Assembly (NCBI GenBank): GCA_964440805.1 | Contig: CAYTTR010000004.1 | Span: 15,040-79,039 of the forward strand | Length of the DNA stretch: 64,000 bases | Direction of reading: 5' to 3' | From: an uncultured Eubacteriales bacterium | GTDB taxonomy: Bacteria > Acidobacteriota > Aminicenantia > Aminicenantales > Aminicenantaceae | Shown here: piece after piece, positions 9,133 to 55,516 of the stretch | How positions within the stretch are numbered: the stretch's first letter is position 1 | Layout: each line of letters begins with the position of its first letter | The notes under the pieces: generated by a model | The model's input: the letters and a program-made list of their open reading frames with translations, nothing else | Told to the model about the DNA's origin: nothing | Database searches by the model: none | Translations under genes and position numbers: made by a program

Positions 9133-9161
9133 TTTGTTATTCCTTCAAAGATCGAAGTTAT

Positions 9162-10219: not shown

Positions 10220-10315
10220 CAAGCTCAACTCTCCAGGTACCTCTTGTCTTTTTCTTTTATCCTGATAAAATAGACCTGCCTTAAAAGAGAACAGTATTTC
10301 AGGGAGAGTAAAATT

Positions 10316-34556: not shown

Positions 34557-34566
34557 TTTTTCCCCC

Positions 34567-36485: not shown

Positions 36486-36581
36486 GATTAATTCCTTATC
36501 TTACTTAATTTATTTAGCCAAAAGGATCGCTCTTGTGCCTTAGGACAAAAGCAATCCTCTTTCTTAGACAAAATATTAATA

Positions 36582-36597
36582 AGCAAAATTTGTGCCT
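36582..36597 (-). promoter_or_regulatory. sigma-54 (-24/-12) promoter of hydBGDA
   Basis: The minus strand reads AGGCACaaattTTGCT with correct GG-N10-GC spacing. It lies ~95 nt upstream of the hydB ATG and immediately downstream of the NtrC-type gene. Confidence 0.6.
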
Positions 36598-36606
36598 TAT
36601 CAATAC

Positions 36607-39154: not shown

Positions 39155-39158
39155 TATT

Positions 39159-39695
39159 TCATGATTGCGGTTTAGCAGTGGTTATGAATTCCATATAAGC
39201 CTGATTGGCTAATTGACTTCCTTCTTTGAGGAGCTCTTCTCTTGGGATTACTTGAGGAGAGGTGACCGCCTGTCCTTTAAGGGCTCGCCTTACAAATTCG
39301 TCTGTGGATTGATCATTCCCGGCTACTTCCGGATTCCTTGAGCGGAGAATAACTTTTCCCTGATGGTCGCAAATAGTGAGTGCATCCAATCCGTTTTCTT
39401 GCCTGACTTTTCCCAGAATTCTTAACAGTGCTTCCCGGTTTTGAACTCGAACCGCCTGATGAAGACTTTCCCTGGATGAGGTCATGGTCACAATGTCTTT
39501 GATATCATTTAGTTTGCCGTTAAAAACCAGCCAGGCGGCAGCCAGATCATGCCTTACTTTTGCTTGAGCCTGGGTTATAAGTGTATTTTTAACCAGACGC
39601 CAGCCAATGATAAGAGAGATCAATCCTCCAAAGATTATAACGAAGAGAAAACTAAGGATGATTTTTTTGCGAAGGGAAAGACGCAAAGGCTTCAT
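39159..39695 (-). CDS. sensor histidine kinase, N-terminal part (TM1 + proximal Cache half), separated from the rest by a frame change
   Basis: 178 aa with TM1 (ILSFLFVIIFGGLISLIIGW) followed by periplasmic sensor sequence. It stops 4 nt before the next ORF, and the downstream frame is already open as PLLNRNHEIVD over the same nucleotides. Confidence 0.65.
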   Translation of the reverse strand: MKPLRLSLRKKIILSFLFVIIFGGLISLIIGWRLVKNTLITQAQAKVRHDLAAAWLVFNGKLNDIKDIVTMTSSRESLHQAVRVQNREALLRILGKVRQENGLDALTICDHQGKVILRSRNPEVAGNDQSTDEFVRRALKGQAVTSPQVIPREELLKEGSQLANQAYMEFITTAKPQS

Positions 39696-39881: not shown

Positions 39882-41342
39882 TTATTTCTTTAGCCTTTCG
39901 ATTAGCTCTCCGTGATGGTTGTAAATATTGATAACCAAAGGCATATCACCAGGAAGAGCATGAGTCCCGCAGGCATGACAGGGATCATAAGGCCGGAAAG
40001 CCATTTCTGCCAGGTTTAGTAAACCTTCGGAGACTTTACCGCCTTTAATAAAAGCTTTGGCAGCTTTTTCAACCGACATGGTGATAGCTGCTGCATTGTT
40101 TACGGTGGCCACGATTAAGTTGGCTTCGGTCAGGATGCCTTTGGAATCTGTTTTGTAGTGGTGGATGAGAGTTCCACGGGGTGCTTCCACAATTCCTACT
40201 CCTTCATCGGGTGTTTCTGTAGGGATGTTTCTAATATTGGGATCGGTTATATCCTTGTTTTCCAGTAATTGTACCATTGCTTCTGTAGCTTGAAGGGCCT
40301 CGATTAAGCGGGCCCAGTGAAAAGCCAAGGTATGGTGAGACGGTTTTCCTCCCAGGACTTCATACATTTTCTCGTAGGCCTCCTGGGCCAGAGGAGTAGC
40401 CATTCCGTCGGAAGCATTCAACCGGGCAAGGGGGGCCACCCGGTAGATGCCGCTGTCTTTACCTTCGCTGAATCCATTCCAACCCACTTTTTTCAAGAAG
40501 GGGAACTTAATGTAGGTCCAGGGCTCTACATGTTCTGAAATATGATCAAGGTATTCGCTGGGGGAAAACTTGGCGTATTCTTTTCCTGTTGGATCGACTA
40601 CCCGGACCGGTCCGTCGTAAAAGTTTACTTTGTTATTTTCATCAACCAGGCCCATGTAATAGGTTTCCATCTTGTAGGCGTCCCCTGTGACCAGGTCGAC
40701 ATACTCTTTGTTCTTGAGCACTACATCATCGAAAATCTGCAAAGCAAACTGAGCAAATTCAACAGCGAATTTGGCTGTTTCCAGGAACTTGAGGCGGTGT
40801 TCTTCATCCAGGCCCTTGGATACTCCTCCAGGGAGGCCGGAAACCGGATGAATGACTTTTCCGCATAAATGATTAAGAATATCCCGGCATTCTCTCCTGA
40901 CCCGGATGACTTTTCCTCCGATCTCCAGCCCCACTTTACCCAGCACGCCAAGAATATTTCGTTCGGCTGCAGGTGCCTGAGGCCCGACCACAAAGTCCGG
41001 TCCTCCGAGAAAAAAGAAATGGAGCGTATGGTCCTCCATCATGAAAGTATTGTAGATAAGTTCGCGAAGCATTTTGGCGGCGGGAGTAGGTTGAACATGA
41101 AACAGGTCGTCCAGGGTTTTGGTTGAAGCCATGTGGTGGGCAGTGGGGCAAACACCGCATATCCGCGGGGTAATGCGGGGCATTTCCTCAGCCGGACGGC
41201 CTACTGCGAACTGTTCGAATCCGCGAAGTTCCGGTATTTGAAGAAAAGCTCTTTCTACATCTCCTTTGTCATCCAGAAAGATTTCAATTTTTCCATGTCC
41301 TTCCAGACGGGTGATAGGGTCTATAGTTATGCGTTGGCTCAT
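39882..41342 (-). CDS. mvhA: group-3c [NiFe]-hydrogenase large subunit (MvhA-type)
   Basis: 486 aa with RICGVCPTAHH near the N-terminus and DPCHACGTH followed by a 25-aa cleavable extension. Confidence 0.9.
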   Translation of the reverse strand: MSQRITIDPITRLEGHGKIEIFLDDKGDVERAFLQIPELRGFEQFAVGRPAEEMPRITPRICGVCPTAHHMASTKTLDDLFHVQPTPAAKMLRELIYNTFMMEDHTLHFFFLGGPDFVVGPQAPAAERNILGVLGKVGLEIGGKVIRVRRECRDILNHLCGKVIHPVSGLPGGVSKGLDEEHRLKFLETAKFAVEFAQFALQIFDDVVLKNKEYVDLVTGDAYKMETYYMGLVDENNKVNFYDGPVRVVDPTGKEYAKFSPSEYLDHISEHVEPWTYIKFPFLKKVGWNGFSEGKDSGIYRVAPLARLNASDGMATPLAQEAYEKMYEVLGGKPSHHTLAFHWARLIEALQATEAMVQLLENKDITDPNIRNIPTETPDEGVGIVEAPRGTLIHHYKTDSKGILTEANLIVATVNNAAAITMSVEKAAKAFIKGGKVSEGLLNLAEMAFRPYDPCHACGTHALPGDMPLVINIYNHHGELIERLKK

Positions 41343-42319
41343 TTTGATTCCTCCATTTTGCGCCTTCTTAAGATGGATTTAGGCAGGCTGAAGCGGTAAA
41401 AAGTGCCGGCTGGATCTACAATGGTTTGAACCACTTTTTCAATTTCTTTTTCGTCGTCTGTGTCCAGAATTGAGGCAAAGGCAGCCAGGAATTTAGCTCC
41501 CTGGTCGAAGACCTGGTCGGTTGGTCCAAAGCAGCCCCGGCAGGGCATGTTGGCTTCAATGCAGCGCTCCCCGCATCCAGTCCGTGTAGCCGGGCCAAGA
41601 CAAACAACTCCCTGGGCGAGAAAACATTTCTCCGGGTCGAGCATAATTTCCCAGGGGCGTTTTATCTCTTTGACAGCCATTTTTTCCGGTTTTGATTCGT
41701 TGCGGTCGCAGTCGTCACAAAGTGATTTGTTGGGGGAGAGAACTGCACCCTTGGGAGGCAGCTTTCCTTCGAGAATAGCTTGAACCGCCTCCATGATTAA
41801 GTTTTTCGGGGGGGCACATCCCGGAAGATAATAATCCACGTCAATAACCTGGTCAAGGGCATAAACGGTATCATAAAAGCTGGGCAGATAAAGCTCTTTT
41901 CCATCAACGGTGCATTTTTCCTGAGGGACTACACCGTCAGGGTTGTCCGTAGAAGGAGTGGTATGATAAGATCGGTTAAAAATTGTTTCTTTGTCCCAAA
42001 AATTGGCCAGGCCAGGAACCCCTCCGAGATGGGCACAGGAGCCGAAGGCTACCACCAGTTGGGATTTCTTCCGGAGAAGATCAACCATTTCTTGTTGTTC
42101 AGACAGGCGGACGGCTCCGTTAATGAAGCTCACAGCAATAGAGCCATCGTCCATGGCCTCTACGTCTTTTTTCTTGAAGTCGAGAGCCACCGGCCAGAAG
42201 ACAATGTCCACTGCTTCAACCACTTTCAGAATGTCTTCGGCAAGGTCGACCACAGCCTCCTCGCATCCGCCGCAGGAGGCACACCAGTAAAAAGCAACTT
42301 TAGGTTTGTCATTACTCAT
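41339..42319 (-). CDS. mvhG: group-3c [NiFe]-hydrogenase small subunit (MvhG-type)
   Basis: 326 aa with N-terminal [28 protein letters not shown] and distal cluster cysteines. It overlaps mvhA by 4 nt. Confidence 0.85.
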
Positions 42320-42743
42320 TATGATTTCCTCCGTTCCAGGACAGGGGTCCTAATTTACGTATTTCTTCTGTGAATTCATTGCATACTTTCTGGAACTTTG
42401 CTCCTTCCGCCGCTGAAACCCATTCCAGGCGGAAGCGTTCTTTTTCGATTCCGAACTGTTCCAACATTTTAGAGAGTAATCTGTGCCTTCTTAAAGCTTT
42501 GTAGTTTCCCTCTTGGTAATGACAATCGCCGGGGTGACACCCAGAAATAAGGACACCGTCTGCGCCTTCTCTGAAAGCTTTGAGGACAAATTGAGGGTCT
42601 ACTCTACCGCTGCACATGACCCTGATAATCCGCATGTTGGGAGCATAGGTCATGCGGGCAGTGCCGGCGAGATCAGCGCCCGTATAAGAGCACCAATTGC
42701 ATAAAAAGCCAACCAATTTAGGGTCGAAGGCTTGCTCGCTCAT
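42312..42743 (-). CDS. mvhD: methyl-viologen-reducing hydrogenase delta subunit (MvhD/FlpD)
   Basis: 143 aa with [24 protein letters not shown] and [21 protein letters not shown]. Confidence 0.85.
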
Positions 42744-42832
42744 TTATTGGCCTCCTTCCAATTTTACGGTCGTCTCCTGAAGAGAAAACCTTGTATTATG
42801 GACGAATTGAATCGTTTATTCTACCACTTTTT

Positions 42833-44590
42833 TTATTCAATAAACAGGCCCTCGATCTCAGCAAAGATCTGGGCATCCCGGAAATGTTTCTGTTGCGAAG
42901 CAGCGCTGGGGCAGGCAGAAACACAGGTGCCGCATCCTTTGCAGAGGGCATCATTGATTTCAGAAATCCCCTTCTCTTTATTGAAGGTGATGGCGGTAAA
43001 AGGGCAAAGTCCCACGCAGAGCTGGCAGCCGGAGCAAAGTTCTTCATCTATTTCGGCTGTAATGGGTTCCAGCTCAAAGACACCCTTATCAGCTAAGGCC
43101 AAGGCTTCGGAAGCAGCTGCTCCTGCTTGAGCCACTGTATCAGGGATATCTTTGGGAGACTGGCAGGTTCCGGCCAGGAAAATTCCGTCGGAAAATGTTG
43201 AAACCGGAGCCAGTTTAGGATGGCGCTCGAGAAAGAAAGTGTCTTGACTGCAGGATATATTGAAAATGTGAGCCAATTCATTTTGCTCAATTCCCGGCTC
43301 AAGACCAGTGGCCAGTATAACCATGTCTACTGGAATCCGGCGGACCGCTCCTAACAAAGTATCTTCTACCCCGATTACAAGTTTTCCCTCTTCGCTTTCT
43401 GTCAGGGGGATATCGCTTATTTCTGATACTCTGCCCCGAATAAACTTGGTTCCTTCCTCGAGCAATCGATGATAGAACTCTTCGTACCCTTTTCCGAAAC
43501 AGCGCATATCGATGTAGAAGTCATATATATCAGCTTCTGTTTTTTCCTTGAGCAGATGGGCGAATTTAAGCGAGTACATGCAGCAGACCCTTGAGCAGTA
43601 TTCGTTGTAGTTTTCATCCCGCGAGCCAACGCAGTGAATAATGCCCACTGCTTTAGGTTCTTCTCCATTGGCCAAAAGAATGTTACCGCCGGTTGGACCT
43701 GAGGCATTAACCAGCTTCTCGAATTCTATGGCAGTTATGACATTAGGAAAGCGCCCGTAGCCGTAGGCCGGTATTTTCCGGGGATCAAAAGGTTTAAAGC
43801 CGGAGGCAAGGATAATGGATCCCACTTCAATCTCTTTTTCTTTCTCCTCCATTTCGTGGTTGATAGCCTCTTTTTCGCAGACTTTTTCACAGAGTTTGCA
43901 GTTTCCGGTTTTAAAATGAATGCAGGCTTCTTCGTCGATAAAGGGAACCATGGGAACAGCTTGTCTTATTGGAACCCGGACGGCGGTAAGGGGTCCTAAT
44001 AGGAGTTCTTCATGAATTACTTTGCGTCCGTGAAGATCTTCGACCGTAATGGCTTCAGTGGGACAAAAATAAGCGCAGGCGGCACAACCGATGCAAGCTT
44101 CTGATTCTTTACCGAAAGGAGGAGCTACTTCTCTATCTTTTCCCCGGTTGATGAAGCTAATAGCATTGGCTCCCACAACATCTTCACAGGTACGGACACA
44201 CAGCCCGCAGAGAATACATTTCTCATGGGGATCCTTGATTTCAAAACGGGTCTTTTCAATTCCCAGGTCCTCGGCAATTTTCTGAACAGGTTCAGCTGCC
44301 GGGGCTCGGGCCATCAGCATTTCTACATTTAGTTTTCTGGCTCTCAGGGCTCTTTCTGAGGAGGTCTCAACCATCATTCCGTCGCGGGCTTGGGTGTTGC
44401 ATGATGTAACCAGATCTTTTTCTCCATGAACATCGATTTCCACCACGCAAACCCGGCAGGCGGCATAAGGCTCAAGCAGCGGGTGATAGCAGAGAGTGGG
44501 GATGTGAACATCCGCCTTTTCCGCTGCTTGAAGAATAGTTGTTCCTTCCTCAACCTGAATTTTTTTTCCGTCTATGGTGATGTCGATCAT
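42833..44590 (-). CDS. chimeric Fe-S flavoprotein: NuoG/HydA-type N-terminus (2Fe-2S + 2x4Fe-4S) fused to the C-terminal two-thirds of HdrA
   Basis: Residues 1-185 contain [18 protein letters not shown]...LCYHP...CRVCVVEI...TSC and [12 protein letters not shown]...[12 protein letters not shown]. From ~205 onward the sequence is HdrA-like: [72 protein letters not shown], and a C-terminal ferredoxin [12 protein letters not shown]...[12 protein letters not shown]. Confidence 0.75.
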   Translation of the reverse strand: [585 protein letters not shown]

Positions 44591-44602
44591 GATTCCTCCT
44601 CC

Positions 44603-46435
44603 TTACTCAATTTTTACGGCTCCGAAATTGCAGACGTCAAAACAGACGCCACATTTAATACACTTATCCTGAACGATACGATGAAGCTGATTTTTTTCTC
44701 CTATAATAGCATCGGAAGCGCAGTTGCGGCGGCAGAGGTCGCAGCCGTGTCCGACTTCAACACAGATTTTTTCATCGATAGTGTAGGTGTTAAGCTCGCG
44801 GCAGACATGAGCCGGACATTTTTTATTGGTTATATGAGCTTCATATTCTTCCCTGAAATATCTCAAAGTGGTCAAAACTGGATTAGGAGCAGTTTTTCCC
44901 AGCCCGCAGAGGGCTGTATCTTTAATGGAAACAGCCAGGTCTTCCAGGAGATTCAGGTCTTCCATTGTCCCTTCACCCTTTGTAATCCGGTCCAGGATTT
45001 CCAGCATGGCTTTTGTCCCTTCCCGGCAGGGAGTACATTTGCCGCAGCTTTCATCCTGGGTGAAGGATAGGAAGTATTTGGCTATATCCACCATGCAGGT
45101 GTCCTCGTCCATGACCACCATTCCTCCTGAGCCCATCATGGAACCTGCGTCTGTCAGGCTTTCGTAGTCTATGGTGAGATCAATTTGTTCCTTGGGTATG
45201 CAACCTCCTGAGGGGCCTCCGGTCTGAACGGCTTTGAATTCTTTTCCTTGAGGAATACCCCCTCCGATTTCGTATATAATTTCTCTGAGGGTAATGCCCA
45301 TGGGGACTTCAACCAGGCCGGTGTTGTTGATTTTTCCTACTATGGAAAAGACTTTTGTTCCTTTGCTGGTTTTGGTGCCGATGTGGGAATACCAGTCAGC
45401 TCCCCGGTTGATAATGGGGGAAACATTGGCCCAGGTTTCCACATTGTTGATGCAGGTGGGCTGTCCGTAGAGTCCTTTCTGAGCAGGATAGGGGGGCCTG
45501 GGTCTGGGTTCACCTAATCTTCCTTCGATTGAGGCGAGAAGGGCTGTTTCCTCTCCGCAAACAAAGGCTCCAGCGCCGCGGGCTACTTTGATATCGAAAT
45601 CGAAGCCTGTTCCCAGAATATCCTCACCAAGAAGACCGTATTCCCTTGCTTGTTTGAGGGCTATATTTAGTCTTTTTAAAGCCAAAGGATATTCATTGCG
45701 GACATAAACATAACCCACACCGACTCCTATGGCCTTGGCTCCGATGACCATTCCCTCAATGACAGAATGTGGATCTGCCTCCAGAATGCTTCGGTCCATA
45801 AAGGCTCCCGGGTCACCTTCGTCACCGTTACAGACAATATACTTCATGCCTCCGTTAGAGGTTGAGGCAGCCCGGACGAATTCCCATTTAAGGCCGGTAG
45901 GAAAACCAGCTCCTCCCCGGCCGCGAAGACCGGATTTTTTTACCTCAGCGATGATTTCTTCCGGAGTCATTTTGGTTAAAGCCTTAACCACAGCCTGATA
46001 ACCGTCCCGGGCGATATATTCATCGATTTTTTCCGGATCAATGAGCCCCCGGTTACGTAAGGCAATAAGGACTTGTTTTTTGAAAAAATCAATTTCATTC
46101 AATACCGGAACCGCTTTTTCTTCCTCCGGCGGTCTGTACATTAGTTTTTGAACGGGGCGTCCTTTTAGAAAATGTTCCTCAACTAAGTGGGGAATGTCTT
46201 TTAAAGTAAGTTGCTGGTAAAAGATGTTTCCCGGCTGGACCACAAGCAAGGGGCCACGTTCACAAAAGCCGTTGCAGCCTGTGGTTACAACCAGAACTTC
46301 ATCTTCCAAGCCTTGTTCTTTGATTTCTTTTTCCAGGGTTTCCTTGATTTCAAACGAGCGGTTGGAAACGCAAGCTGTTCCGGCGCAAACCATTAAATGA
46401 ATCCGGTATCTTTTCTCTGTTGCTTTTTCGGGCAT
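44603..46435 (-). CDS. NuoF-like NAD(H)-binding flavoprotein subunit (HydB/HndC type)
   Basis: 610 aa. It has an N-terminal thioredoxin-like 2Fe-2S domain (VCAGTACVS...GCNGFCERGP), GRGGAGFPTGLKW, CGKCTPCREG and two C-terminal CxxCxxCxxxC motifs. Confidence 0.9.
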   Translation of the reverse strand: MPEKATEKRYRIHLMVCAGTACVSNRSFEIKETLEKEIKEQGLEDEVLVVTTGCNGFCERGPLLVVQPGNIFYQQLTLKDIPHLVEEHFLKGRPVQKLMYRPPEEEKAVPVLNEIDFFKKQVLIALRNRGLIDPEKIDEYIARDGYQAVVKALTKMTPEEIIAEVKKSGLRGRGGAGFPTGLKWEFVRAASTSNGGMKYIVCNGDEGDPGAFMDRSILEADPHSVIEGMVIGAKAIGVGVGYVYVRNEYPLALKRLNIALKQAREYGLLGEDILGTGFDFDIKVARGAGAFVCGEETALLASIEGRLGEPRPRPPYPAQKGLYGQPTCINNVETWANVSPIINRGADWYSHIGTKTSKGTKVFSIVGKINNTGLVEVPMGITLREIIYEIGGGIPQGKEFKAVQTGGPSGGCIPKEQIDLTIDYESLTDAGSMMGSGGMVVMDEDTCMVDIAKYFLSFTQDESCGKCTPCREGTKAMLEILDRITKGEGTMEDLNLLEDLAVSIKDTALCGLGKTAPNPVLTTLRYFREEYEAHITNKKCPAHVCRELNTYTIDEKICVEVGHGCDLCRRNCASDAIIGEKNQLHRIVQDKCIKCGVCFDVCNFGAVKIE

Positions 46436-46448
46436 ATCTCCCCTCCTC

Positions 46449-46838
46449 TCAATAATCGGTCTTTTCGCTGCCTATTCCCAGGGCATAGTCCTTGACCACA
46501 TTTCCACCGGTAATGTGTTTCTCAAAAATTTCCTTAACCTTTTTTTCGTCAAGGTCAACATATTTTACTGGAGGCTTTCCTTTGAGTTCCACTGTGGCCA
46601 TTGGTTCCCGGCTGCAGAGTCCGGCACAACCAGAAGTGGTGAGTAGGATATCAGTGATATCCTTTTCTTCGAGTTCCTTCATGAAAGTATTCATGATACT
46701 TCTGGCTCCGGCTGCTATGCCACAGGTTCCCATATGAACCGTGATTTTAGCCTTGTATTCTCCACCTTCTCGCAGTCCAGTTTGTTTTCGGGTTTTTTCC
46801 CGGATTTTTTCTAAATCTTCAAGGGTAAGTTTAGGCAT
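46449..46838 (-). CDS. thioredoxin-like (2Fe-2S) ferredoxin (HndB-like)
   Basis: ATG 46838 follows GAGGGGG. The motifs are HMGTCGIAAGA and TSGCAGLCSREP. Confidence 0.8.
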   Translation of the reverse strand: MPKLTLEDLEKIREKTRKQTGLREGGEYKAKITVHMGTCGIAAGARSIMNTFMKELEEKDITDILLTTSGCAGLCSREPMATVELKGKPPVKYVDLDEKKVKEIFEKHITGGNVVKDYALGIGSEKTDY

Positions 46839-46849
46839 TTTTCCCCCTC

Positions 46850-47302
46850 TCATTTTTGATATTTTTTAATGACACCCGGGACTTTCATCTGGGGAATCTT
46901 TCCATGAACTTCTTCTCCCACCATAACCACTGGCGCCAGTCCGCAGCATCCCACACAACGAACTGCGTCCAGGCTGAACTTTAAATCCTCAGTTGTTTCC
47001 CCGGTCTTAATCCCCAGTTCCCGTTCAAATTTTTCCAGAACCAATTGAGCCCCTCTGACATGGCAGGCCGTTCCCATGCAGACATGAATTGGGTTCTTCC
47101 CTCTGGGCACTAAGCTGAAAGCGTTGAAAAAAGTAGCCAGACTCAGTACCCGGCTTAAGGGGACATTGAGCTCCTTGGAGACTTGAACGAGTGTTTCTTT
47201 GGGGAGGTAACCATAATGTTCCTGGATGTCTTGGAGGATGGCAATTATTGAACTCTGTTGAGGTTCATAACGTTCGATTATTTCAGTGACTTTTTCCTCC
47301 AT
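46850..47302 (-). CDS. NuoE-like 2Fe-2S subunit (HydC/HndA type)
   Basis: 150 aa with HVCMGTACHVRGA and VRCVGCCGLAPV. Confidence 0.9.
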   Translation of the reverse strand: MEEKVTEIIERYEPQQSSIIAILQDIQEHYGYLPKETLVQVSKELNVPLSRVLSLATFFNAFSLVPRGKNPIHVCMGTACHVRGAQLVLEKFERELGIKTGETTEDLKFSLDAVRCVGCCGLAPVVMVGEEVHGKIPQMKVPGVIKKYQK

Positions 47303-47306
47303 GTTT

Positions 47307-47849
47307 TTACCTCCTTATTAGATCGGTTCCTTCTTTTAAGTTGTTTATGATAAATGACATGACTCCTGGAGAGTTCAAAGGTTGTCCATTAAATCTGGTC
47401 CTGATATCCTTGGTGGAAAAGGTGAACTCCTGGCCGTCTTTTTGGTGGATATAAACAATATCCACTTCCGGATGACCCATTATCAGGGTAGCCAATGTTT
47501 GAGGGATATCTCCAAGAGGTTTCATGTCCCAGTGATCTGTTTTAAAGGTGGCCCTGACTTTTGTCCCCCGGCCGGGAGAGGATTCAATTGAGAAATGTCC
47601 CCCTGCAGCCCGGGCCGCTTCAGCCAGCAGAGAAAGCCCCAGTCCAACTTTCCGGGTAGTCCGGGAAGTAAAGAAAGGATCCACAGCTTTTTTTAAAGTT
47701 TCTTTATCCATCCCTTGTCCGTTGTCTTCTATACTTAGGATAAGTAGATTGCCGGCAATATTTTCTTCCAGACGGATTATTATTCTGGAAGCCTGAGCAG
47801 AAATAGAATTCTCGGCAATGTCAAGCAGATGCAATGACAAGTCTTCCAT
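47307..47849 (-). CDS. histidine-kinase-like ATPase (HATPase_c only)
   Basis: 180 aa with LLDIAENSISA (N-box-like), IEDNGQGMD (G1) and VGLGLSLL (G2). There is no HisKA or H-box. Confidence 0.75.
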   Translation of the reverse strand: MEDLSLHLLDIAENSISAQASRIIIRLEENIAGNLLILSIEDNGQGMDKETLKKAVDPFFTSRTTRKVGLGLSLLAEAARAAGGHFSIESSPGRGTKVRATFKTDHWDMKPLGDIPQTLATLIMGHPEVDIVYIHQKDGQEFTFSTKDIRTRFNGQPLNSPGVMSFIINNLKEGTDLIRR

Positions 47850-47856
47850 TTTTCCT

Positions 47857-48585
47857 TTAATTTAAAAGCCTTCTTCCGTTTTTATTTAATAAAGCTAATT
47901 TAATTTCTTCTATAGAAACTTTTTCCAGTTGAAAAAAAGTAAATCTCCGGCCGATTTCCTCCGGGCGGTGAGCATCTGATGAAGCTGTCATGGGTAATGA
48001 AGGAGAAAACTTTCTCCGGGCATCTTTAATAGAGATAAGAGGCGAGGTTTCCAGAGCGTCCAGGGCAAGCTCAGGAGGGATGAATCCCAGTTGGCTGAAG
48101 ATGCTGAAAGCCCCCCGGTCGATATGGGAGGCCATTGCCAGTCCACCTAAAGAATGGATGGCATCGACCGTCTCATTGATGGTAAGAGCGCAGGCACCAA
48201 TGAGGAGACGAGGATTGAAATTCAGAACTTCGCCTTTTTCATTGACTACTGCCTGGAGCCCGAAAGCTTTTTCATCGTTTTCACCGGGAAGATGGGCGTA
48301 AATCATTTCCTGGAGTCCGAAGGCCTGGCGGGCATTATCGAAAAGTCCCAAAAGATGAATTTCTTCCTGGGTGGTCACTTCAATCCCGGGAAAGATGAAA
48401 ATCTTATTGCTTTTGGCGGCGTCGGTAACGGCAGGAACATTCTCGGCTGAATTGTGGTCACAAATGCCCAGGATATCTAACTCTTCTTTAAGGGCTCTTT
48501 CCACAATAGCCCGGGGGGACATGCTCAATTCAGCGCAAGGAGAAAGGCAGGTATGAATGTGGAGATCAGCTTTGAAACTCTTCAC
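47857..48585 (-). CDS. PHP-domain phosphoesterase
   Basis: 242 aa with ADLHIHTCLSPCA, ICDHNS, ASHID and SSDAH, the metal-binding His/Asp series of PHP domains. Confidence 0.8.
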   Translation of the reverse strand: MKSFKADLHIHTCLSPCAELSMSPRAIVERALKEELDILGICDHNSAENVPAVTDAAKSNKIFIFPGIEVTTQEEIHLLGLFDNARQAFGLQEMIYAHLPGENDEKAFGLQAVVNEKGEVLNFNPRLLIGACALTINETVDAIHSLGGLAMASHIDRGAFSIFSQLGFIPPELALDALETSPLISIKDARRKFSPSLPMTASSDAHRPEEIGRRFTFFQLEKVSIEEIKLALLNKNGRRLLN

Positions 48586-48931
48586 GCTTTTTTTCTCCTT
48601 CTTTAAGCAATTGATAAAGTTTGCCTGAGGCGGTAAAGGCCGTTTCCTGGCTAAGGAGAAGAGGCACTCCTTCTTCTCCGGCTTTTTTTACGGCTGCATC
48701 CTCAGGCATCCGTCCGTTGACCAGGATAATTCCGCTCAATTCCTTCAATACCGCCACAGCCACAATATTCTGATGGATTTGAAGAGTTATCCACAGATTT
48801 TTCGCTTTGCTGTTGGCCATGACGTCGCTAAGAAGATCTGAGGTATAACCGCTGGAGACCTCGATGTCCAGCCGGTCTTCAGCGGTCAGGGCCTCAAGAC
48901 CCAGTTGTTTTATAATGGTTTTTAACTTCAT
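48566..48931 (-). CDS. DRTGG domain protein
   Basis: 121 aa, a paralogue of 50734-51102 (SDLLSDVMANSKAKNLWITLQ / SDLMSDVLAFGKPGLLLLTGL; GRMPEDAAVKKAGEEGVPLL / GKKPDKEAVELAERKNISLL). Confidence 0.7.
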   Translation of the reverse strand: MKLKTIIKQLGLEALTAEDRLDIEVSSGYTSDLLSDVMANSKAKNLWITLQIHQNIVAVAVLKELSGIILVNGRMPEDAAVKKAGEEGVPLLLSQETAFTASGKLYQLLKEGEKKREEFQS

Positions 48932-50301
48932 TTTTTTCCGGCCTTTCTTTTTTTCTTAGAGCCTTGATTCCTGGGAGAATAAGCCTTCTGGGTTTTTTCA
49001 AGCATTTTAATTAGTTCTGTGGAAAGCTTCTTGAAATGTTGAGGGACCATGGCAAAACAATCTGTTAGTTCCGCCTCTCCCCTGACTAAATCCTCGGCAA
49101 AAATAGGACAACTGGGAGAACCGCAGGCTCCGCAATCAATTTTAGGAAGCTTTTTATAGATTTCATCTTTTTCTTTCTTTTTTTGAATGGCTAAGGAGAG
49201 ATCATCATAAAGAGGCTTCAACGGCCGGGGCTTGAGCTCTCCTTCTATAAAAAAGCTTCCTTCCCGGTAGCGTTTGCGGATGCTGACGATATCCGGACAG
49301 GCCTTGACTTTTTCCAGTTCAAGAGTTTCCAGAAGCTGAACTATTTTGTTATAGGAGATATAAAGATTTTCTACGGTTAATGAACCGCCCACGCATCCCT
49401 GGGGACAGGAATAAGCTTCAATGAAGTCGATATGACTTAGTTTGCCTCGCTCGATATCTTCAAAAACCTTAGTGATTTCTGCAATACCCGATACTGCCAG
49501 TGAATTCTTCAGTTTGAGGGTGCGACGGATACCTCCGGCAATAGCCCAGCCCAAACCCAGAATGCATATTTTTTCCAGAGAATCTCCCTCATCTTTCTTG
49601 TCCATGTTTTCTATAGCAGAAAGCAGAGGGCCGTAAATATCAGAAACAGCAATAGCTCCATCAAGATGGGATTTGCCTTTTTCAGCAGGCTGTTTAATGG
49701 ATATCATTTTAACTGGGCAAGGTGTAATGTAAAAAGCCCCGATTTCTTTTTCTTTAAGTCCGAGCTGACTTGATTTCTTTTTCTTTATTTCTCTTCCTGC
49801 AAGTTCTCTGGGAATATCAATGGGAGTGACATGCTGGACAAGAGAAGGATATTTTACTTGAATCAATCTGACTACAGTAGGGCAGACATTGGAAATGATT
49901 GGACGGGGACCTTTATTTTCTCTTAAATATTCCTGCATAGCTAAGCTTACCTCACCGCAGGTAAAAGCCAAGTCATAGGCATCGTCGAATCCAAGGCGGC
50001 GCAGTCCGCGGAGGATTTTACCTGGTAGAATCTCCTGGCCAAACTGGGCATAAAGAGCCGGTGAAGGGACAGCCACTGTGTAACGGAACCTGGTTAGTTC
50101 TCCTACCGGATCAGTTAAAGGAACAATTGCATTTGAGGGACAGGCGGTGATACATTCGCCGCAGTCGATGCACTTATCTTCCAGAATATGGGCTTTTCCT
50201 CCTCTGACCCGTATGGCCTGGGTAGGGCAAGCTCTCATGCAGCTCATCCGGCCTCGACACTTTTCTGTATCAATGCGAATAGTGTGGAAATATTCAGTCA
50301 T
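48928..50301 (-). CDS. [FeFe]-hydrogenase-like protein (2x4Fe-4S + H-cluster-domain-like core + C-terminal CxxCxxxxC Fe-S motif), putative sensor
   Basis: 457 aa with CMRACPTQAI...CIDCGECITACP. Its counterparts of the H-cluster motifs are degenerate: SNVCP (versus TSCCP), TPCPVK (versus MPCxxK) and SCPQGCVGG (versus CxxGCxxGG). The C-terminal motif is CGACGSPSCP...C. It lacks a NuoG-like N-terminus. Confidence 0.7.
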   Translation of the reverse strand: MTEYFHTIRIDTEKCRGRMSCMRACPTQAIRVRGGKAHILEDKCIDCGECITACPSNAIVPLTDPVGELTRFRYTVAVPSPALYAQFGQEILPGKILRGLRRLGFDDAYDLAFTCGEVSLAMQEYLRENKGPRPIISNVCPTVVRLIQVKYPSLVQHVTPIDIPRELAGREIKKKKSSQLGLKEKEIGAFYITPCPVKMISIKQPAEKGKSHLDGAIAVSDIYGPLLSAIENMDKKDEGDSLEKICILGLGWAIAGGIRRTLKLKNSLAVSGIAEITKVFEDIERGKLSHIDFIEAYSCPQGCVGGSLTVENLYISYNKIVQLLETLELEKVKACPDIVSIRKRYREGSFFIEGELKPRPLKPLYDDLSLAIQKKKEKDEIYKKLPKIDCGACGSPSCPIFAEDLVRGEAELTDCFAMVPQHFKKLSTELIKMLEKTQKAYSPRNQGSKKKRKAGKK

Positions 50302-50737
50302 GGTTCTTTTCCAGAAAAAAAATCATCCTGAGGAATGTTCCTTCTCCGGGAATAGAGGTTATGGTAAAAAGATCGGCATTTTTCTTTATATTAGGAAGAC
50401 CCATGCCGGCACCGAAGCCCATCTCTCTCATTTCCTCGGTGGCGGTGGAGTAACCTTCCTGCATGGCCAATTCAATATTTTCTATGCCCTGCCCTTGATC
50501 ATCGACCTCGATCTTGATTGCTCTGGGATTGAGCACCAGAGATAATTCTCCTTCTTGGGCATACATAACAACGTTCATTTCTGCCTCATAGGAGGCGATA
50601 GCCACCCTGCGTATGATTTCAGGAGCGATCCCGATTTCCCTGAGAATTTCTTTGACTTCTGTGGAAACATTTCCTGCCCGGTTGAAGTCTCCTCCCTTAA
50701 TGGAAAAAGATTGGAATAATTCATCCTTCCTTGTCAT
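50294..50737 (-). CDS. anti-sigma-factor-type Ser/Thr kinase-like ATPase (HATPase_c only)
   Basis: 147 aa with ASYEAEMNVVMY, DDQGQGIEN and GFGAGMGLPNI. Confidence 0.7.
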   Translation of the reverse strand: MTRKDELFQSFSIKGGDFNRAGNVSTEVKEILREIGIAPEIIRRVAIASYEAEMNVVMYAQEGELSLVLNPRAIKIEVDDQGQGIENIELAMQEGYSTATEEMREMGFGAGMGLPNIKKNADLFTITSIPGEGTFLRMIFFLEKNHD

Positions 50738-51102
50738 CCTGTTTTTTTTTCAGCCGTAGAAAATACTCCCGGAATCCCGGATTTATATAAAATACCGCAG
50801 GCTTCGTACATCATAAAATTAGTGCAGAGAAGAGAAATGTTTTTTCTCTCGGCTAATTCCACTGCTTCTTTATCAGGTTTTTTGCCGCGGACATAAACGA
50901 TGGCCTTGGCTTCGATGATATCGGCGGTGCGCACCGATTGCTGGTTGGACAATCCGGTGAGAAGAAGAAGGCCCGGTTTCCCAAAAGCCAGGACATCGCT
51001 CATCAGATCAGAACCGCCGGCAAAAGAGATTTCCTGATCGAGAAGGCTGTCTCCGGAAATGACTTCAGCCTTGAGAAGTTCTTTTATTTTTCTGAGATTC
51101 AT
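50734..51102 (-). CDS. DRTGG domain protein
   Basis: 122 aa, a paralogue of 48566-48931, with a 4-nt overlap with the downstream gene. Confidence 0.7.
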   Translation of the reverse strand: MNLRKIKELLKAEVISGDSLLDQEISFAGGSDLMSDVLAFGKPGLLLLTGLSNQQSVRTADIIEAKAIVYVRGKKPDKEAVELAERKNISLLCTNFMMYEACGILYKSGIPGVFSTAEKKTG

Positions 51103-51107
51103 TACTT

Positions 51108-51959
51108 TTAATGTTCTTTTTGAACTTTTTTAAAAATTGTCTTTCCTTTCCTGATAATTCTTTCCGATGGACTGACAATAGTGGGGCAGTTTTCCCAGCA
51201 AGCGCCGCAGCCGTTGCATGTGTCCACATCGACAAAGCGGGCTTTTTTCTTGATTCTGGCCTTGAAATTTCCCACATGACCGGAAATTTCTTCCACTTCG
51301 CTCCAGGTTAAAAGCTGGATATTGGGATGTTTGCCCACTTCGGTCATTTTAGGAGTAAGAATGCAGGCGGAGCAGTCCAGGGTGGGGAAAGTTTTATCCA
51401 GCATGGACATGTGGCCGCCGATGGAAGGCTCTTTTTCTACCAAGTAAACTTTTTTTCCTGAATTAGCATAAGTAAGGGCAGCATGAATGCCGGCAATGCC
51501 GCCTCCGACAATCAGAATTTCCGGTCTTACCGGAACTTCTTTTTTCATTAACGGATCATGGAGAGCCACCCGGCGCACTGCGGCTGAAATCAAGGCTTTG
51601 GCTTTCTTGGTGGCTTTGTCGGGATCCTTGGTAACCCAGGAAACATGTTCCCGGATATTGGACATTTGAAAGAAAAAGGGATTAAGTCCTCCCTCAGCCG
51701 TTGCCCCACGGAAAGTAGGTTCGTGCATTAAAGGTGAACAGGAGGCCACTACTACCCGGTTCAGGTTATGATCTCTAATATTTTGTTTTATAAGTTCCTG
51801 GCCAGGATCCGAGCACATGAATTTATGCTCCTTGGCTACAATCACGTTATCCAACTTGGAGGCGAATTCGGCCGCTTCATAGACATTAACTTTTCCGGCA
51901 ATATTGGTGCCGCAGTGGCAGACAAAAACTCCGATTCTTGGTTGGCCGTTTTCTTGCAT
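51108..51959 (-). CDS. hdrA: HdrA N-terminal fragment (N-terminal Cys domain + first part of the FAD domain + first ferredoxin-insert motif)
   Basis: 283 aa with IGVFVCHCGTNIAG...VVVASCSP...NIREHVSWV, the FAD site ILIVGGGIAGIHAA, LVEKEPSIGGHM, DKTFPTLDCSACILTPKM and CNGCGACWENCP. It stops 24 codons after that last motif. Confidence 0.8.
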   Translation of the reverse strand: MQENGQPRIGVFVCHCGTNIAGKVNVYEAAEFASKLDNVIVAKEHKFMCSDPGQELIKQNIRDHNLNRVVVASCSPLMHEPTFRGATAEGGLNPFFFQMSNIREHVSWVTKDPDKATKKAKALISAAVRRVALHDPLMKKEVPVRPEILIVGGGIAGIHAALTYANSGKKVYLVEKEPSIGGHMSMLDKTFPTLDCSACILTPKMTEVGKHPNIQLLTWSEVEEISGHVGNFKARIKKKARFVDVDTCNGCGACWENCPTIVSPSERIIRKGKTIFKKVQKEH

Positions 51960-51960
51960 G

Positions 51961-52845
51961 TTATCCTCCTATCTGGATTCTTGACCACATATTATTCAGG
52001 GGAATTATGGAGCGGTTAAAGCCCAACTCTTCCCTCGGAAGGCCGAAAGCTAATCCCATGAGCTGGGAAAAATAGAGAATGGGGAGCTTAAAATCTTCTT
52101 TAAAAGCCTTGGCCACCTTGCTCTGGATTATCTCCAAGTTGAACTGGCACAGCGGACAAATGGTCACAATAACATCAGCCTTTTTCCGGCGAGCTTCTTT
52201 GAGCAGGACATAGTTGAGCTGAGTGCCCACTTCCTCAATGGTTCCTGTTAAAGAGCCTCCGCAGCATTTGGTCTTGGCTGCATAATCAACAGGAGAAGCT
52301 CCCAGGGTTTCCATAAGTGAATCAAGGCTTGTTGGATAATCAGGATCATCGAAATCAGTGTATGGCCTGACAAGCTGGCATCCGTAATAGCAGGCAATTC
52401 GGAGTCCAACCAAAGGGTTTTGAACTTTTGTCTGGATAGTTTTAAAGCCGACTTCATTCACCAGCACATCGAGAGGGTGTTTTACTTCCACTCCACCCTT
52501 ATACTCACAACTTGAGTTTTTAAGGTCATCAAGGATTTTTTTTGCTTGGTTGCTTCCTTCTTTGAGAAAATGGTTGGATTTTTTTAAGGTCAGAAAGCAG
52601 CCGGCACAGGGAGCCAGAATATCCTTGCCTGTTTTTTCAGCAATGGATAAATTCCGGCCGCAGATGGCAGCAGCCATTTTGTCGTCAACAGAGAAGTAAG
52701 CGGTTGCCCCGCAGCAATTCCAATCCTCCATCTCCTCCGTTTCCAGTCCCAGTGTTTTTAATACCGGAAGCAGAGACTCTTCATAATGCTTGGCGTTTCC
52801 CTGCATGGAACATCCGGGATAATAAACATAATCTTTCATCTTCAT
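51961..52845 (-). CDS. hdrB: heterodisulfide reductase subunit B (two CCG domains)
   Basis: 294 aa with YYPGCS...WNCCGA...APCAGC and YYGCQ...KCCGGS...CPLCQ. Confidence 0.9.
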   Translation of the reverse strand: MKMKDYVYYPGCSMQGNAKHYEESLLPVLKTLGLETEEMEDWNCCGATAYFSVDDKMAAAICGRNLSIAEKTGKDILAPCAGCFLTLKKSNHFLKEGSNQAKKILDDLKNSSCEYKGGVEVKHPLDVLVNEVGFKTIQTKVQNPLVGLRIACYYGCQLVRPYTDFDDPDYPTSLDSLMETLGASPVDYAAKTKCCGGSLTGTIEEVGTQLNYVLLKEARRKKADVIVTICPLCQFNLEIIQSKVAKAFKEDFKLPILYFSQLMGLAFGLPREELGFNRSIIPLNNMWSRIQIGG

Positions 52846-53417
52846 TCCTCCTTGGCTGCCTTTAATATCCGGCGAAGCTGTCTGGTATTTTTAATTTTTT
52901 CTTTTTTTAAGCTCATTCGTCCGGTCTTCATCAGGCTCATACCCATTGGGGCCATTTTGAGAAGCCCCATTGGATTTTTGGATTTAAGGTATAGATTGAG
53001 GACAAGCCAGGTTTCAGAGTTGCGGCCGTTTTTGGCAATCAGGCGGTGCATTTCCCGGGCCAGAACGGGCATGGAAAACTTGGAGGGATAAACTCCTTCT
53101 TCTATAGCTTTTCTTTTCAGAGCGTACATGACATCGGTTATTTTGATTTTAGAAGGGCAGCGGACCTGACAGGTGTAACATGACGGGCAGAGCCAGATGG
53201 TAAAACTTTTTAAGGCTTCTTCTTTAAATCCGTTTTTTATGAATGAGATGATTTTACGAGGGGGATAATCCATATAAATAGCCATTGGACAGGAACTGCT
53301 GCAAGTGCCGCATTGAATACAGCGGTCTATTTCCTCGCAGTGGGACATCTCCTTGATTTCGTCAAGGAAATTTCTGTCCAGTTCCTCTTCAAACTTAACT
53401 TTTCTCTGGATTTCCAT
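52842..53417 (-). CDS. hdrC: heterodisulfide reductase subunit C
   Basis: 191 aa with CIQCGTCSSSCP and CPSCYTCQVRCP. It overlaps hdrB by 4 nt. Confidence 0.85.
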   Translation of the reverse strand: MEIQRKVKFEEELDRNFLDEIKEMSHCEEIDRCIQCGTCSSSCPMAIYMDYPPRKIISFIKNGFKEEALKSFTIWLCPSCYTCQVRCPSKIKITDVMYALKRKAIEEGVYPSKFSMPVLAREMHRLIAKNGRNSETWLVLNLYLKSKNPMGLLKMAPMGMSLMKTGRMSLKKEKIKNTRQLRRILKAAKEE

Positions 53418-53634: not shown

Positions 53635-53663
53635 ATAATATTTTTTATAACAGGCCTTGTCAA
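53635..53663 (-). promoter_or_regulatory. candidate sigma-70 promoter for the hdr-nuoEF-mvh operon
   Basis: The minus strand reads TTGACA-N17-TATTAT, ~220 nt upstream of hdrC. It lies in AT-rich DNA, so a chance match is possible. Confidence 0.3.
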
Positions 53664-54383: not shown

Positions 54384-54416
54384 TTTTTACCTCCTATTTT
54401 ACCTCCTATTAAATTT

Positions 54417-55462: not shown

Positions 55463-55516
55463 TTTTCCAACCTTTACATTTAATTAGACACAGGTTTTTC
55501 CAAAAAACTTGCGTCG

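Follow-up and report, generated by a model that had tools for sequence, protein, structure and literature searches.

A Conserved Aminicenantes Operon Predicted To Join an Mvh-Hdr Hydrogenase to a Bifurcating NAD(H)/Ferredoxin Module Encoded within a Split hdrA Gene

What enzyme is made when the gene for the bifurcating flavoprotein HdrA is broken in two and the genes for a second bifurcating module occupy the gap? This question is raised by a 16-gene operon on contig CAYTTR010000004.1 (assembly GCA_964440805.1) of an uncultured bacterium of the Aminicenantaceae. The operon lies in a stretch of 64,000 nucleotides (nt; positions 15,040 to 79,039 of the contig), which is called the window below and from whose first letter all positions are counted. 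It contains the genes for the heterodisulfide reductase HdrCBA, the [NiFe] hydrogenase MvhDGA, a NuoEFG-like flavoprotein module of the BfuCBA type, and a six-gene cassette around a homologue of sensory [FeFe] hydrogenases. The operon is conserved, and we consider it moderately probable that ten of its genes encode a single cytoplasmic complex acting on four substrates (H2, a disulfide, NAD(H), and ferredoxin (Fd)) with two bifurcation modules in series, by a wiring and in a direction that we infer from the sequence.

Organization of the Operon and the Break in hdrA

Sixteen minus-strand open reading frames (ORFs) run contiguously from 53417 to 39882 in the ORF listing of the 64-kb window, with the small gaps and many overlaps that were described in the initial annotation. 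The spacings between neighbors, read 5' to 3', are -4, 1, 5, -4, -8, -4, -20, 7, 4, -4, 13, 12, 89, -8, and -4 nt, which amounts to 8 overlaps and a widest gap of 89 nt. The reading frames of mvhD, mvhG, and mvhA overlap. The guanine-plus-cytosine (GC) content of the individual genes is homogeneous (0.43-0.50). The gene order from hdrC to mvhA that had been read from the translations is matched exactly by the Pfam content of the proteins (Table 1).

The placement of the flavoprotein block inside hdrA, also part of the initial annotation, was borne out by alignments of the two HdrA pieces. Residues 6-266 of the N-terminal piece align to residues 3-263 of Methanothermococcus HdrA (5odc_A, E 9e-100), and its C-terminus lies 25 residues beyond CNGCGACWENCP, which is motif 1 of the inserted ferredoxin domain. 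The remainder of HdrA is found in a fusion protein, whose residues 198-582 align to residues 276-652 of HdrA 8rvu_a (E 6e-118). This HdrA-C part opens with the segment that is normally located after motif 1 and contains the second motif of the inserted domain, here Cx7Cx2Cx3C. Residues 1-194 of the fusion protein match the short BfuA found in the Wor-Bfu enzyme of Acetomicrobium (9mqx_A, E 2e-37; structure from PMC12318220), with 12 invariant cysteines and no HxxxCxxC motif. hdrA breaks off directly behind cysteine motif 1 of the inserted ferredoxin domain, and the gap encodes a BfuCBA module that is complete and of the bifurcating type. From the alignments of the N-terminal piece and the fusion protein it follows that two polypeptides have to come together to form the inserted ferredoxin domain, whose connecting loop bears BfuA. 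HdrA is not one uninterrupted polypeptide, and the NCBIfam HdrA/HdrA2 scores are 351-440 bits against cutoffs of 1100-1400. Selenocysteine read-through was considered as the cause of the split and was rejected, with ~6.5 kb of well-conserved genes lying between the two parts.

The gene order within the gap is the canonical nuoE-nuoF-nuoG order, that is, a hydCBA-type operon inside hdrA. The best solved relatives of BfuC are the HydC subunits of bifurcating hydrogenases (8a6t_C, 6e-47; 7t2r_C, 5e-46). BfuB matches HydB of the NiFe-Bfu enzyme of Acetomicrobium mobile from end to end (7t2r_B, E 1e-261) with all of the cluster motifs. The PGAFM signature, A202, M204, and the ligands C438, H525, C531, and C536 of BfuB are kept.

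The environment of the bifurcating flavin of HdrA is complete. It includes the lysine at N5 (CCMYslK), TLDCSAC, CVGSRD...YCSxVCC (HA4), and both motifs of the inserted domain. The flavin-near CxxC (TLDCSAC) is kept in the N-terminal piece, and the cluster cysteines and the flavin-contacting lysine of the fusion protein are all invariant in family alignment A1. Two [4Fe-4S] motifs are present in HdrC, and the cysteines of both complete CCG motifs of HdrB are aligned with those of methanogen HdrB (8rvv_B, E 5e-57). MvhA is equally close to its two best solved relatives, 7t2r_D (E 7e-118) and MvhA 5odc_F (E 5e-117). Across HdrABC, MvhADG, and BfuABC, the only cofactor ligand not kept is Cys476 of BfuB, which is replaced by Thr.

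The two sides of the break are also joined to the Bfu module by gene fusions in related loci, which are designated here by L numbers. The N-terminal piece of HdrA is translationally fused to NuoE in L004, L006, L016, L052, and L058, with a linker of ~9 residues in L004, L006, and L016. Protein P0138 is a natural unsplit HdrA in which BfuA is inserted behind motif 1 via a low-complexity linker. Together with the nuoE-nuoF-nuoG order, these fusions and P0138 tie the whole BfuCBA unit to the break point of HdrA. Physical coupling of Hdr and Bfu is favored by the BfuA::HdrA-C fusion, the HdrA-N::NuoE fusions, and the unsplit P0138. The exact position of the break at the inserted ferredoxin domain, the assignment of the NuoF-like subunit to the bifurcating BfuB type, and the wide distribution of the design go beyond the initial annotation.

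The 660-aa (amino acid) polypeptide P0138 is from JGI 3300042731. Its gene adjoins a gene of the aldehyde:ferredoxin oxidoreductase (AFOR) family and a second HdrA-like gene, which is a Bam/Wor-like context.

Distribution and Conservation

Relatives were found by a scan of one genome per species, followed by tblastn searches with the 16 window proteins, and the figures given are those among the matches listed. No close Aminicenantes genomes are among the matches listed from the one-genome-per-species scan, and the Aminicenantes were covered by five exact-protein look-ups. More than 120 homologues of the fusion protein were obtained at 77-93% identity and with lengths of 584-591 aa. The named ones are from Candidatus Aminicenantes, Aminicenantales, or Aminicenantaceae; the Aminicenantes are ranked by NCBI as the phylum Candidatus Aminicenantota. 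The synteny search suggested in the initial annotation returned the same gene order in further Aminicenantes contigs and in L009, and the core order in other phyla. The identical 16-gene order, with the same junctions, appears on six further contigs from independent samples with four different fusion-protein sequences at 77-93% identity (L001, L002, L003, L087, L088, and L089). They represent five additional populations of Aminicenantes. These contigs are from JGI 3300037583, 3300002481, and 3300005254, ENA ERZ25039515, and Logan SRR3723048 and SRR28875795. All 16 genes are present in order in L009, a Bryobacterales-labeled metagenome-assembled genome (MAG), at 47-72% protein identity.

The order hdrC-hdrB-hdrA(N)-nuoE-nuoF-[bfuA::hdrA(C)]-mvhD-mvhG-mvhA, free of the sensor cassette, is found in Zixibacteria (L008), Ignavibacteria (L010), Verrucomicrobiota (L017), and an unclassified bacterium (L011). 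In Planctomycetota (L050, L052, and L058) the locus is rearranged: part of the cassette is located between nuoF and bfuA, and the fusion protein runs into a second HdrA copy. Hydrogenase-less units of the form hdrA(N)-nuoE-nuoF-[bfuA::hdrA(C)...]-mvhD are found in Desulfobacterota, Spirochaetes, Anaerolineae (Chloroflexota), a Thermoplasmata archaeon, and others. By MAG label, the relatives span at least 8 phylum-level groups, and the BfuA::HdrA-C architecture is common to about a dozen 50%-identity clusters. The first operon gene is hdrC in L001-3, L008-10, L017, and L087-89. In nearly all related loci mvhD is directly 3' of the fusion gene, including loci with no nearby hydrogenase, and mvhG is kept after mvhD in L001, L005, L008-11, and L017. 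The gene for the small 2Fe-2S ferredoxin follows nuoE in L009, L014, L052, L058, and L077 and is absent from L008, L010, and L017.

These results bear on a trivial explanation of the locus, by which the arrangement would be an artifact or accident: a chimeric assembly, a recent insertion that inactivates hdrA, or three independent systems that happen to be adjacent. The HdrA frame is indeed interrupted by ~6.5 kb, and a neighboring histidine kinase gene is frameshifted in the window. Nevertheless, this explanation is highly improbable. Chimeric assembly at 44590/44603 and 51102/51108 had been raised in the initial annotation; both junctions recur identically in independent JGI, ENA, NCBI, and Logan assemblies, and misassembly is excluded on these grounds. 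The suggestion of a cassette insertion caught in an intermediate state did not hold either, since the arrangement is kept at 47-93% protein identity in many lineages with all cluster ligands but Cys476 preserved and a homogeneous GC content. An accident is also disfavored by the full-length homologues that the fusion protein has, more than 120 in number, by the presence of the design in several phyla, and by the uniform composition.

A single origin of the Bfu insertion was rejected at the level of a neighbor-joining tree. The tree was made from ~377 columns of the HdrA-C part, and no outgroup was used for the Bfu genes. Monophyly of the Bfu-type HdrA-C sequences was recovered in 0 of 100 bootstraps, and the two Bfu-type sequences from Anaerolineae are placed with an unsplit HdrA of the same class in 98 of 100. 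Bfu-inserted, NfnB-inserted, and unsplit HdrAs are intermixed by taxon. From this interleaved tree it appears that the Bfu insertion arose repeatedly or recombined between backbones. The inserted ferredoxin domain would seem to behave as a hot spot for insertion or docking, with Bfu, NfnB-like, and polyferredoxin partners. Such a hot spot would help to annotate HdrA paralogues and to engineer electron-bifurcating enzymes.

Further variants of this site were observed. A second type of HdrA occurs in L039, a Candidatus Aminicenantes MAG, as a single protein of 1133 aa (7664-11065). The insert of this protein is GltD/NfnB-like (Fer4_20 + Pyr_redox_2, residues 293-686) and is located directly after motif 1 of the inserted domain. 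About 26 HdrA matches among L001-L086 have a similar insert of ~1.5 kb. The closest relative of the fusion protein outside of the Aminicenantes among the matches listed is from L005 (60% identity). Instead of a BfuB with a C-terminal ferredoxin domain, the gene upstream of the fusion in L005 (3-1685) encodes the C-terminal [4Fe-4S] region of NuoF joined to a GltD/NfnB-like flavoprotein; the contig begins inside this NuoF::NfnB-like gene. The hydrogenase-less units of L004 (3796-12941) and L006 (1-9928) are beside genes for an acyl-CoA dehydrogenase and EtfAB, and their last gene encodes an HdrD/BC-like CCG protein. This context recalls the high-potential arm of class II benzoyl-CoA reductase (BCRII), which is linked to an electron-transferring flavoprotein (ETF).

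Proposed Complex and Alternative Wirings

The ten subunits of the proposed complex would be HdrC, HdrB, the two-piece HdrA, BfuC, the accessory 2Fe-2S protein, BfuB, the BfuA::HdrA-C fusion, MvhD, MvhG, and MvhA. H2 would be oxidized by MvhAG. The high-potential electron would pass through HdrC and HdrB to a disulfide, and the low-potential electron would exit via the split inserted ferredoxin domain into BfuA, not to free ferredoxin. From BfuA it would reach the flavin mononucleotide (FMN) core of BfuBC for the reduction of NAD+ and ferredoxin. One self-consistent stoichiometry would be 4 H2 + 2 RS-SR' + NAD+ + 2 Fd(ox) -> 4 thiols + NADH + 2 Fd(red), and the overall reaction may run backwards.

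The inserted ferredoxin domain is the low-potential exit in methanogens (PMC9012536; bioRxiv 10.64898/2026.04.10.717634). The low-potential arm is proposed to feed BfuA and BfuBC because the Bfu module is spliced into that exit domain and because an NfnB-like module is found at the same site in anaerobic methanotrophic archaea of group 1 (ANME-1) and in L039. A precedent for serial coupling of HydBC-type and HdrA-type modules has been demonstrated with BCRII (bioRxiv 10.64898/2026.04.10.717634). An NAD(H)-coupled Mvh-Hdr-NuoEF supercomplex was one of the two readings offered in the initial annotation. Its NAD(H) coupling is favored by the fusions, the split HdrA, and the gene order kept across phyla; the complex itself stays a prediction.

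The standard potential E0' of the NAD+/NADH couple is -320 mV. With the other potentials from PMC9304861, an average acceptor potential of ~-275 mV is calculated for the proposed stoichiometry, compared with ~-320 mV for canonical Hdr-Mvh. By calculation, the difference of ~45 mV would allow a roughly 30-fold lower H2 to be tolerated.

A different wiring is suggested by BCRII, Bam[(BC)2DEFGHI]2 of Geobacter metallireducens, which is the only characterized enzyme with HydBC-type and HdrA-type bifurcation modules in one complex (bioRxiv 10.64898/2026.04.10.717634). It resembles the present system in having both modules, an MvhD-like adaptor, and a high-potential arm like HdrBC/D. BamGHI, the homologues of HydCBA, hand over electrons through BamI to the C-terminal ferredoxin-like domain and the MvhD-like BamF, from which they reach the flavin adenine dinucleotide (FAD) that bifurcates. 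By analogy, HdrA would have both the Bfu module and Mvh at its mid-potential entry (C-terminal ferredoxin domain and MvhD). The HdrA flavin would be loaded by H2 or, through confurcation, by NADH and reduced ferredoxin, and would send high-potential electrons to HdrBC and low-potential ones, by way of the rebuilt inserted domain, to free ferredoxin or a different partner. The same node could interconvert H2 with NADH and Fd, like NiFe-Bfu. Such a wiring fits the location of mvhD, which is the next gene 3' of the fusion gene in this operon and in almost every relative, even where a hydrogenase is not nearby, and the retention of both cysteine motifs of the inserted domain, by which an external acceptor could still be served.

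Three features nevertheless render this wiring unlikely. The tether from BfuA to the second half of the inserted domain has at most ~45 residues, and that from NuoE to the first half has only ~9 in L004, L006, and L016; such short tethers would place the Bfu module at the inserted ferredoxin domain. The partner-facing cluster (A4) of type-2 BfuA is in the ferredoxin part, beside the fusion point. NAD(P)-binding NfnB-like inserts occupy the same site in other HdrAs. The present system also differs from BCRII in that the Bfu-like module of BCRII consists of separate subunits at the mid-potential input, the inserted domain feeds the tungsten enzyme BamBC, and no hydrogenase is involved. BamE is a fused HdrA dimer, and BamD, with a degenerate distal cluster, reduces ETF. 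Here, at the level of sequence, Bfu is spliced into the inserted ferredoxin domain, Mvh is at the input, and HdrB is canonical. No gene of the AFOR family (BamB/BamC type) was found in the operon or in the flanking ORFs that were scanned.

The complex could also be a hydrogenase of the NiFe-Bfu type (NADH + Fd(red) <-> H2), with HdrA and MvhD acting mainly as a conduit between BfuA and MvhAG and with HdrBC as a thiol redox switch or side branch. BfuB, BfuC, and MvhA are as near or nearer to the subunits of A. mobile NiFe-HydABCSL than to other solved proteins, fermentation with H2 as the outlet for reductant has been described for the Aminicenantes (PMC10766756), and the sensor type of this operon is usually the companion of trimeric bifurcating [FeFe] hydrogenases. 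The HdrA flavin site (Lys, CxxC, and HA4 cysteines) and both non-cubane motifs of HdrB are, however, fully conserved, unlike the degenerate BamD, and hdrC and hdrB are the first, well-translated genes in every Mvh-linked relative. A complex that is essentially of the NiFe-Bfu type is quite improbable.

Several points weigh against the arrangement of the two modules in series. The coupling is a prediction from sequence. In BCRII, the only solved enzyme with HdrA and HydBC, the Bfu-like module is at the mid-potential entry, and by analogy the topology of a fusion need not equal the path of the electrons. There is no obvious energetic need for a second bifurcating site to act on electrons that are already at low potential; the lower H2 threshold calculated above may provide a rationale. 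The B2 (or Zn) site of BfuB has five ligands, of which Cys476 is replaced by Thr. Other structures model Zn at this site, for which four ligands would be enough. The AlphaFold2 model of the fusion protein, from an 11-sequence alignment, is mediocre, with a predicted local distance difference test (pLDDT) score of 69.5 and a predicted template modeling (pTM) score of 0.45; the confidence is low in all of the ferredoxin-like parts and the junction residues 186-216 are below 50. No hydEFG maturase genes are present in the 64-kb window, and the H-cluster in the sensor homologue is putative.

If the serial wiring is true, the hierarchical coupling of bifurcation modules would have a second example besides BCRII, and its first with a hydrogenase, and models of H2 threshold and redox balance would change for abundant fermenters of sediments and aquifers such as the Aminicenantes. 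A wider proposal is put forward tentatively, as possible rather than probable: that the operon represents an unrecognized, widespread class of four-substrate hydrogenase in which the FAD of HdrA and the FMN/FeS core of BfuBC act in series via the low-potential arm, unlike in BCRII, and which is encoded as an "operon within a gene". If this class exists, H2 could be oxidized or evolved at pressures closed to canonical Hdr-Mvh with reduced ferredoxin still being made, and the low-potential partner of bacterial Hdr-Mvh would be named. HdrABC-MvhADG is annotated in thousands of bacterial genomes, and the locus offers a concrete partner and a reaction to assay. A large subset of bacterial Hdr-Mvh may be hard-wired to an NAD(H)/ferredoxin bifurcating module at the low-potential exit of HdrA.

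Comparison with Characterized Systems

The initial annotation left room for the arrangement to be an already characterized hydrogenase class. No characterized enzyme matches it, and the closest are Hdr-Mvh, NiFe-Bfu, and BCRII. The group 3c Hdr-Mvh complex of methanogens (PDB 5odc and 8rvu) has all six subunit types, with ~40-60% identity in the aligned parts and with motifs kept. The hdrCBA-mvhDGA order of that system is the frame of the present operon. Unlike in methanogens, HdrA is here made as two polypeptides, with BfuCBA and the six-gene sensor cassette encoded in the gap, and the low-potential arm is fused to BfuA and does not end at a ferredoxin-docking surface. The host here is a bacterium and, to our knowledge, lacks coenzymes M and B, unlike the methanogen hosts of Hdr-Mvh.

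The NiFe-Bfu (NiFe-HydABCSL) enzyme of A. mobile (PMC9304861; PDB 7t2r) shares the bifurcating BfuB/BfuC core, a closely related [NiFe] large subunit, and the predicted NAD(H) and ferredoxin substrates. In that enzyme the hydrogenase is connected via a His-ligated cluster, whereas BfuA here is of the short type 2 and fused to HdrA, the hydrogenase is attached via MvhD and HdrA, and HdrBC adds a fourth substrate. The Bfu catalogue of Schut et al. 2022 (PMC9304861) contains the functionalities FeFe, NiFe, Nfn, Fdh, F420, Wor, Bam, Por, Codh, Mbh, Nuo, and Rub, and 17-18 of its clades are unassigned. A Hdr-Mvh type is not among the 12 Bfu functionalities of this catalogue, which was made without metagenomes, and none of its BfuA types is joined to HdrA.

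The HdrA of ANME-1 (Chadwick et al. 2022, PMC9012536) likewise has a nucleotide-binding flavoprotein module at the same insertion point, at the low-potential exit. The insert there is a single GltD/NfnB-like domain in one polypeptide, and here it is a three-subunit FMN/FeS module in a split gene. Transcription units with the order nuoEFG-mvhD-hdrA were noted in passing, at the level of annotation, in the genome paper of Desulfotignum phosphitoxidans (PMC4046663). These units correspond to the hydrogenase-less relatives; their description is without a split HdrA or a BfuA fusion and without an attached hydrogenase. The archaeal hybrid [FeFe]/[NiFe] hydrogenases with HydBCD are of a different design. 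In the FlxABCD-HdrABC system of Desulfovibrio, NAD(H) is reportedly linked to an Hdr module with an MvhD-like adaptor, through an unrelated NAD(P)H-binding subunit and with no attached hydrogenase, and neither a split HdrA nor a BfuA fusion is reported for it. Genome papers on Aminicenantes (PMC10766756), Zixibacteria-type bacteria, and Ignavibacteria annotate such genes as plain MvhADG/HdrABC. No name for the composite (Hdr-Bfu or Mvh-Bfu) was found in the literature searched, and an earlier account in the HdrA-module review of Appel et al. 2021 or in the Extremophiles paper on Aminicenantes is possible.

Table 1. Genes of the 16-gene operon and its candidate promoter, listed in the direction of transcription
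Feature	Coordinates	Strand	Description
sigma-70-like promoter candidate, TTGACA-17-TATTAT	53635..53663	-	11/12 consensus matches, top score in scanned region; ~220 nt 5' of hdrC ATG
hdrC	52842..53417	-	191 aa, 2x[4Fe-4S] ferredoxin-like subunit; Pfam Fer4_8/Fer4_17
hdrB	51961..52845	-	294 aa, two CCG domains (non-cubane [4Fe-4S] sites); Pfam CCG x2, E 7e-31
hdrA N-terminal piece	51108..51959	-	283 aa; N-terminal cluster domain, first half of FAD/thioredoxin reductase (TrxR) domain, first CxxCxxCxxxCP motif of inserted ferredoxin domain
DRTGG-like protein 1	50734..51102	-	122 aa; Pfam DRTGG, E 2e-4; weak ribosome-binding site
GHKL ATPase, SpoIIAB/RsbW-like serine-kinase type	50294..50737	-	147 aa; Pfam HATPase_c_2, E 2e-9
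Group D (M2e)-type putative sensory [FeFe]-hydrogenase homologue	48928..50301	-	457 aa; Pfam 2 Fer4 + Fe_hyd_lg_C + FeS
DRTGG-like protein 2	48566..48931	-	121 aa; Pfam DRTGG, E 3e-4
PHP-family phosphoesterase	47857..48585	-	242 aa, GTG start; Pfam PHP + PHP_C
Histidine-kinase-like ATPase without HisKA domain	47307..47849	-	180 aa; Pfam HATPase_c, E 4e-18
bfuC (NuoE/HydC-like)	46850..47302	-	150 aa, [2Fe-2S]; Pfam 2Fe-2S_thioredx, E 5e-49
Thioredoxin-like [2Fe-2S] ferredoxin, optional accessory subunit	46449..46853	-	134 aa; homologous to BfuB/NfnB N-terminal domain (9n5u_B, 2.5e-11)
bfuB (NuoF/HydB-like, bifurcating type)	44603..46435	-	610 aa; N-terminal [2Fe-2S], FMN/NAD(H) site, [4Fe-4S], C-terminal 2x[4Fe-4S]
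bfuA::hdrA-C fusion	42833..44590	-	585 aa; Pfam Fer2_4/Fer4 in BfuA part; residues 1-194 type-2 BfuA ([2Fe-2S] + 2x[4Fe-4S], without His-ligated cluster), rest HdrA-C
mvhD	42312..42743	-	143 aa, [2Fe-2S] adaptor; Pfam FlpD, E 3e-58
mvhG	41339..42319	-	326 aa, [NiFe]-hydrogenase small subunit; Pfam Oxidored_q6, E 6e-21
mvhA	39882..41342	-	486 aa, [NiFe]-hydrogenase large subunit (group 3); RICGVCPTAHH and DPCHACGTH motifs + C-terminal extension

The Sensor Cassette

The absence of a catalytic HydA, as claimed in the initial annotation, holds for the operon, and the [FeFe]-like protein was assigned instead to group D (M2e). It has two N-terminal [4Fe-4S] motifs, the four H-cluster cysteines (including SCPQGCVGG), and no PAS domain. 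The proton-relay cysteine (Cys299) is replaced by Val (SNVCP), Met353 is replaced by Thr (TPCPVK), and the C-terminus contains CGACGSPSC-x16-C, i.e., Cx2Cx4Cx16C. The gene is located upstream of the NuoE/NuoF-type genes and beside a kinase-like ATPase. By sequence features, the protein is a group D (M2e) putative sensor in every respect by which that group is defined from TamHydS (PMC8163306), for which sensing itself has only been proposed. TamHydS shares the domain layout, the diagnostic substitutions, and the position upstream of NuoE/NuoF-type genes beside a histidine-kinase-like ATPase. The homologue here differs in that it accompanies a [NiFe]/Hdr/Bfu complex, not a trimeric group A [FeFe] hydrogenase, and has additional DRTGG, RsbW-like, and PHP partners. 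The six interleaved genes would constitute a regulatory cassette around this homologue that would tune expression or activity to H2.

Both DRTGG assignments are under the Pfam gathering score (21.6 and 21.2 vs 25.2 bits), with no NCBIfam match. The top NCBIfam match of the RsbW-like ATPase is the anti-sigma F factor SpoIIAB, under its cutoff. The position of the first DRTGG gene is kept in the Aminicenantes and in L009, the second is kept in L001, L009, L052, and L058, and the PHP gene is kept in L001, L009, L014, L052, and L058. The cassette is variable within the Aminicenantes. Only a 210-aa fragment of the sensor homologue is called in L087 (5027-5659), and in L088 (3493-4311) the first DRTGG-like protein and the RsbW-like ATPase are joined in one ORF of 272 aa.

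Expression Signals and Neighboring Genes

The promoter candidate upstream of hdrC is putative, as it is a consensus match only. A strong terminator-like hairpin that belongs to the upstream gene is located at 53829-53805, and the start of the operon is well bracketed by this hairpin and the promoter candidate at 53663-53635. The ATG of hdrC is preceded by AAAGGAGGA with a GGAGG ribosome-binding site. In the 20 nt inspected upstream of each start, GGAGG-type sites were found before all of the structural genes. A strong GGAGG is missing or weak at four genes, those for the first DRTGG-like protein, the RsbW-like ATPase, the sensor hydrogenase, and the small 2Fe-2S ferredoxin. This pattern suggests graded translation within the operon, and regulators made in low amounts would fit weak ribosome-binding sites. 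No sigma-54 -24/-12 promoter was found upstream of hdrC, and the motif occurs across the window at the level of chance (40 found, 43 expected). A scan of the whole window with Rfam at the gathering threshold gave no match.

The minus-strand genes directly 5' of the operon (53862-56110) encode an extracytoplasmic function (ECF) sigma factor (55517-56110), a 164-aa protein with no Pfam match, and two periplasmic proteins of the Metal_resist/LTXXQ type. Both LTXXQ genes also precede the operon in L089.

Just 3' of mvhA (37826-39695, minus strand) is a Cache/HAMP histidine kinase gene, the frameshifted neighbor mentioned above. It is broken into ORFs of 178 and 442 aa in different frames with a junction near 39154-39161; intact orthologues of 661-663 aa are present in L001, L087, and L089. 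The frameshift is either a sequencing error or a pseudogene. A sigma-54-dependent response regulator follows (36607-37845, minus strand) and then the -24/-12-like motif AGGCACAAATTTTGC (36583-36597, 1 mismatch). This motif is the only well-placed sigma-54 match and is located upstream of a neighboring group 3b hydrogenase. The minus-strand block at 32035-37845 contains this four-gene, group-3b-like [NiFe] hydrogenase operon, which encodes a Fer4_22 protein, an FAD/NAD subunit, the small subunit, and a large subunit that is unusually long (581 aa). The block of histidine kinase, response regulator, and hydrogenase is also found 3' of the 16-gene operon in L001 and L087.

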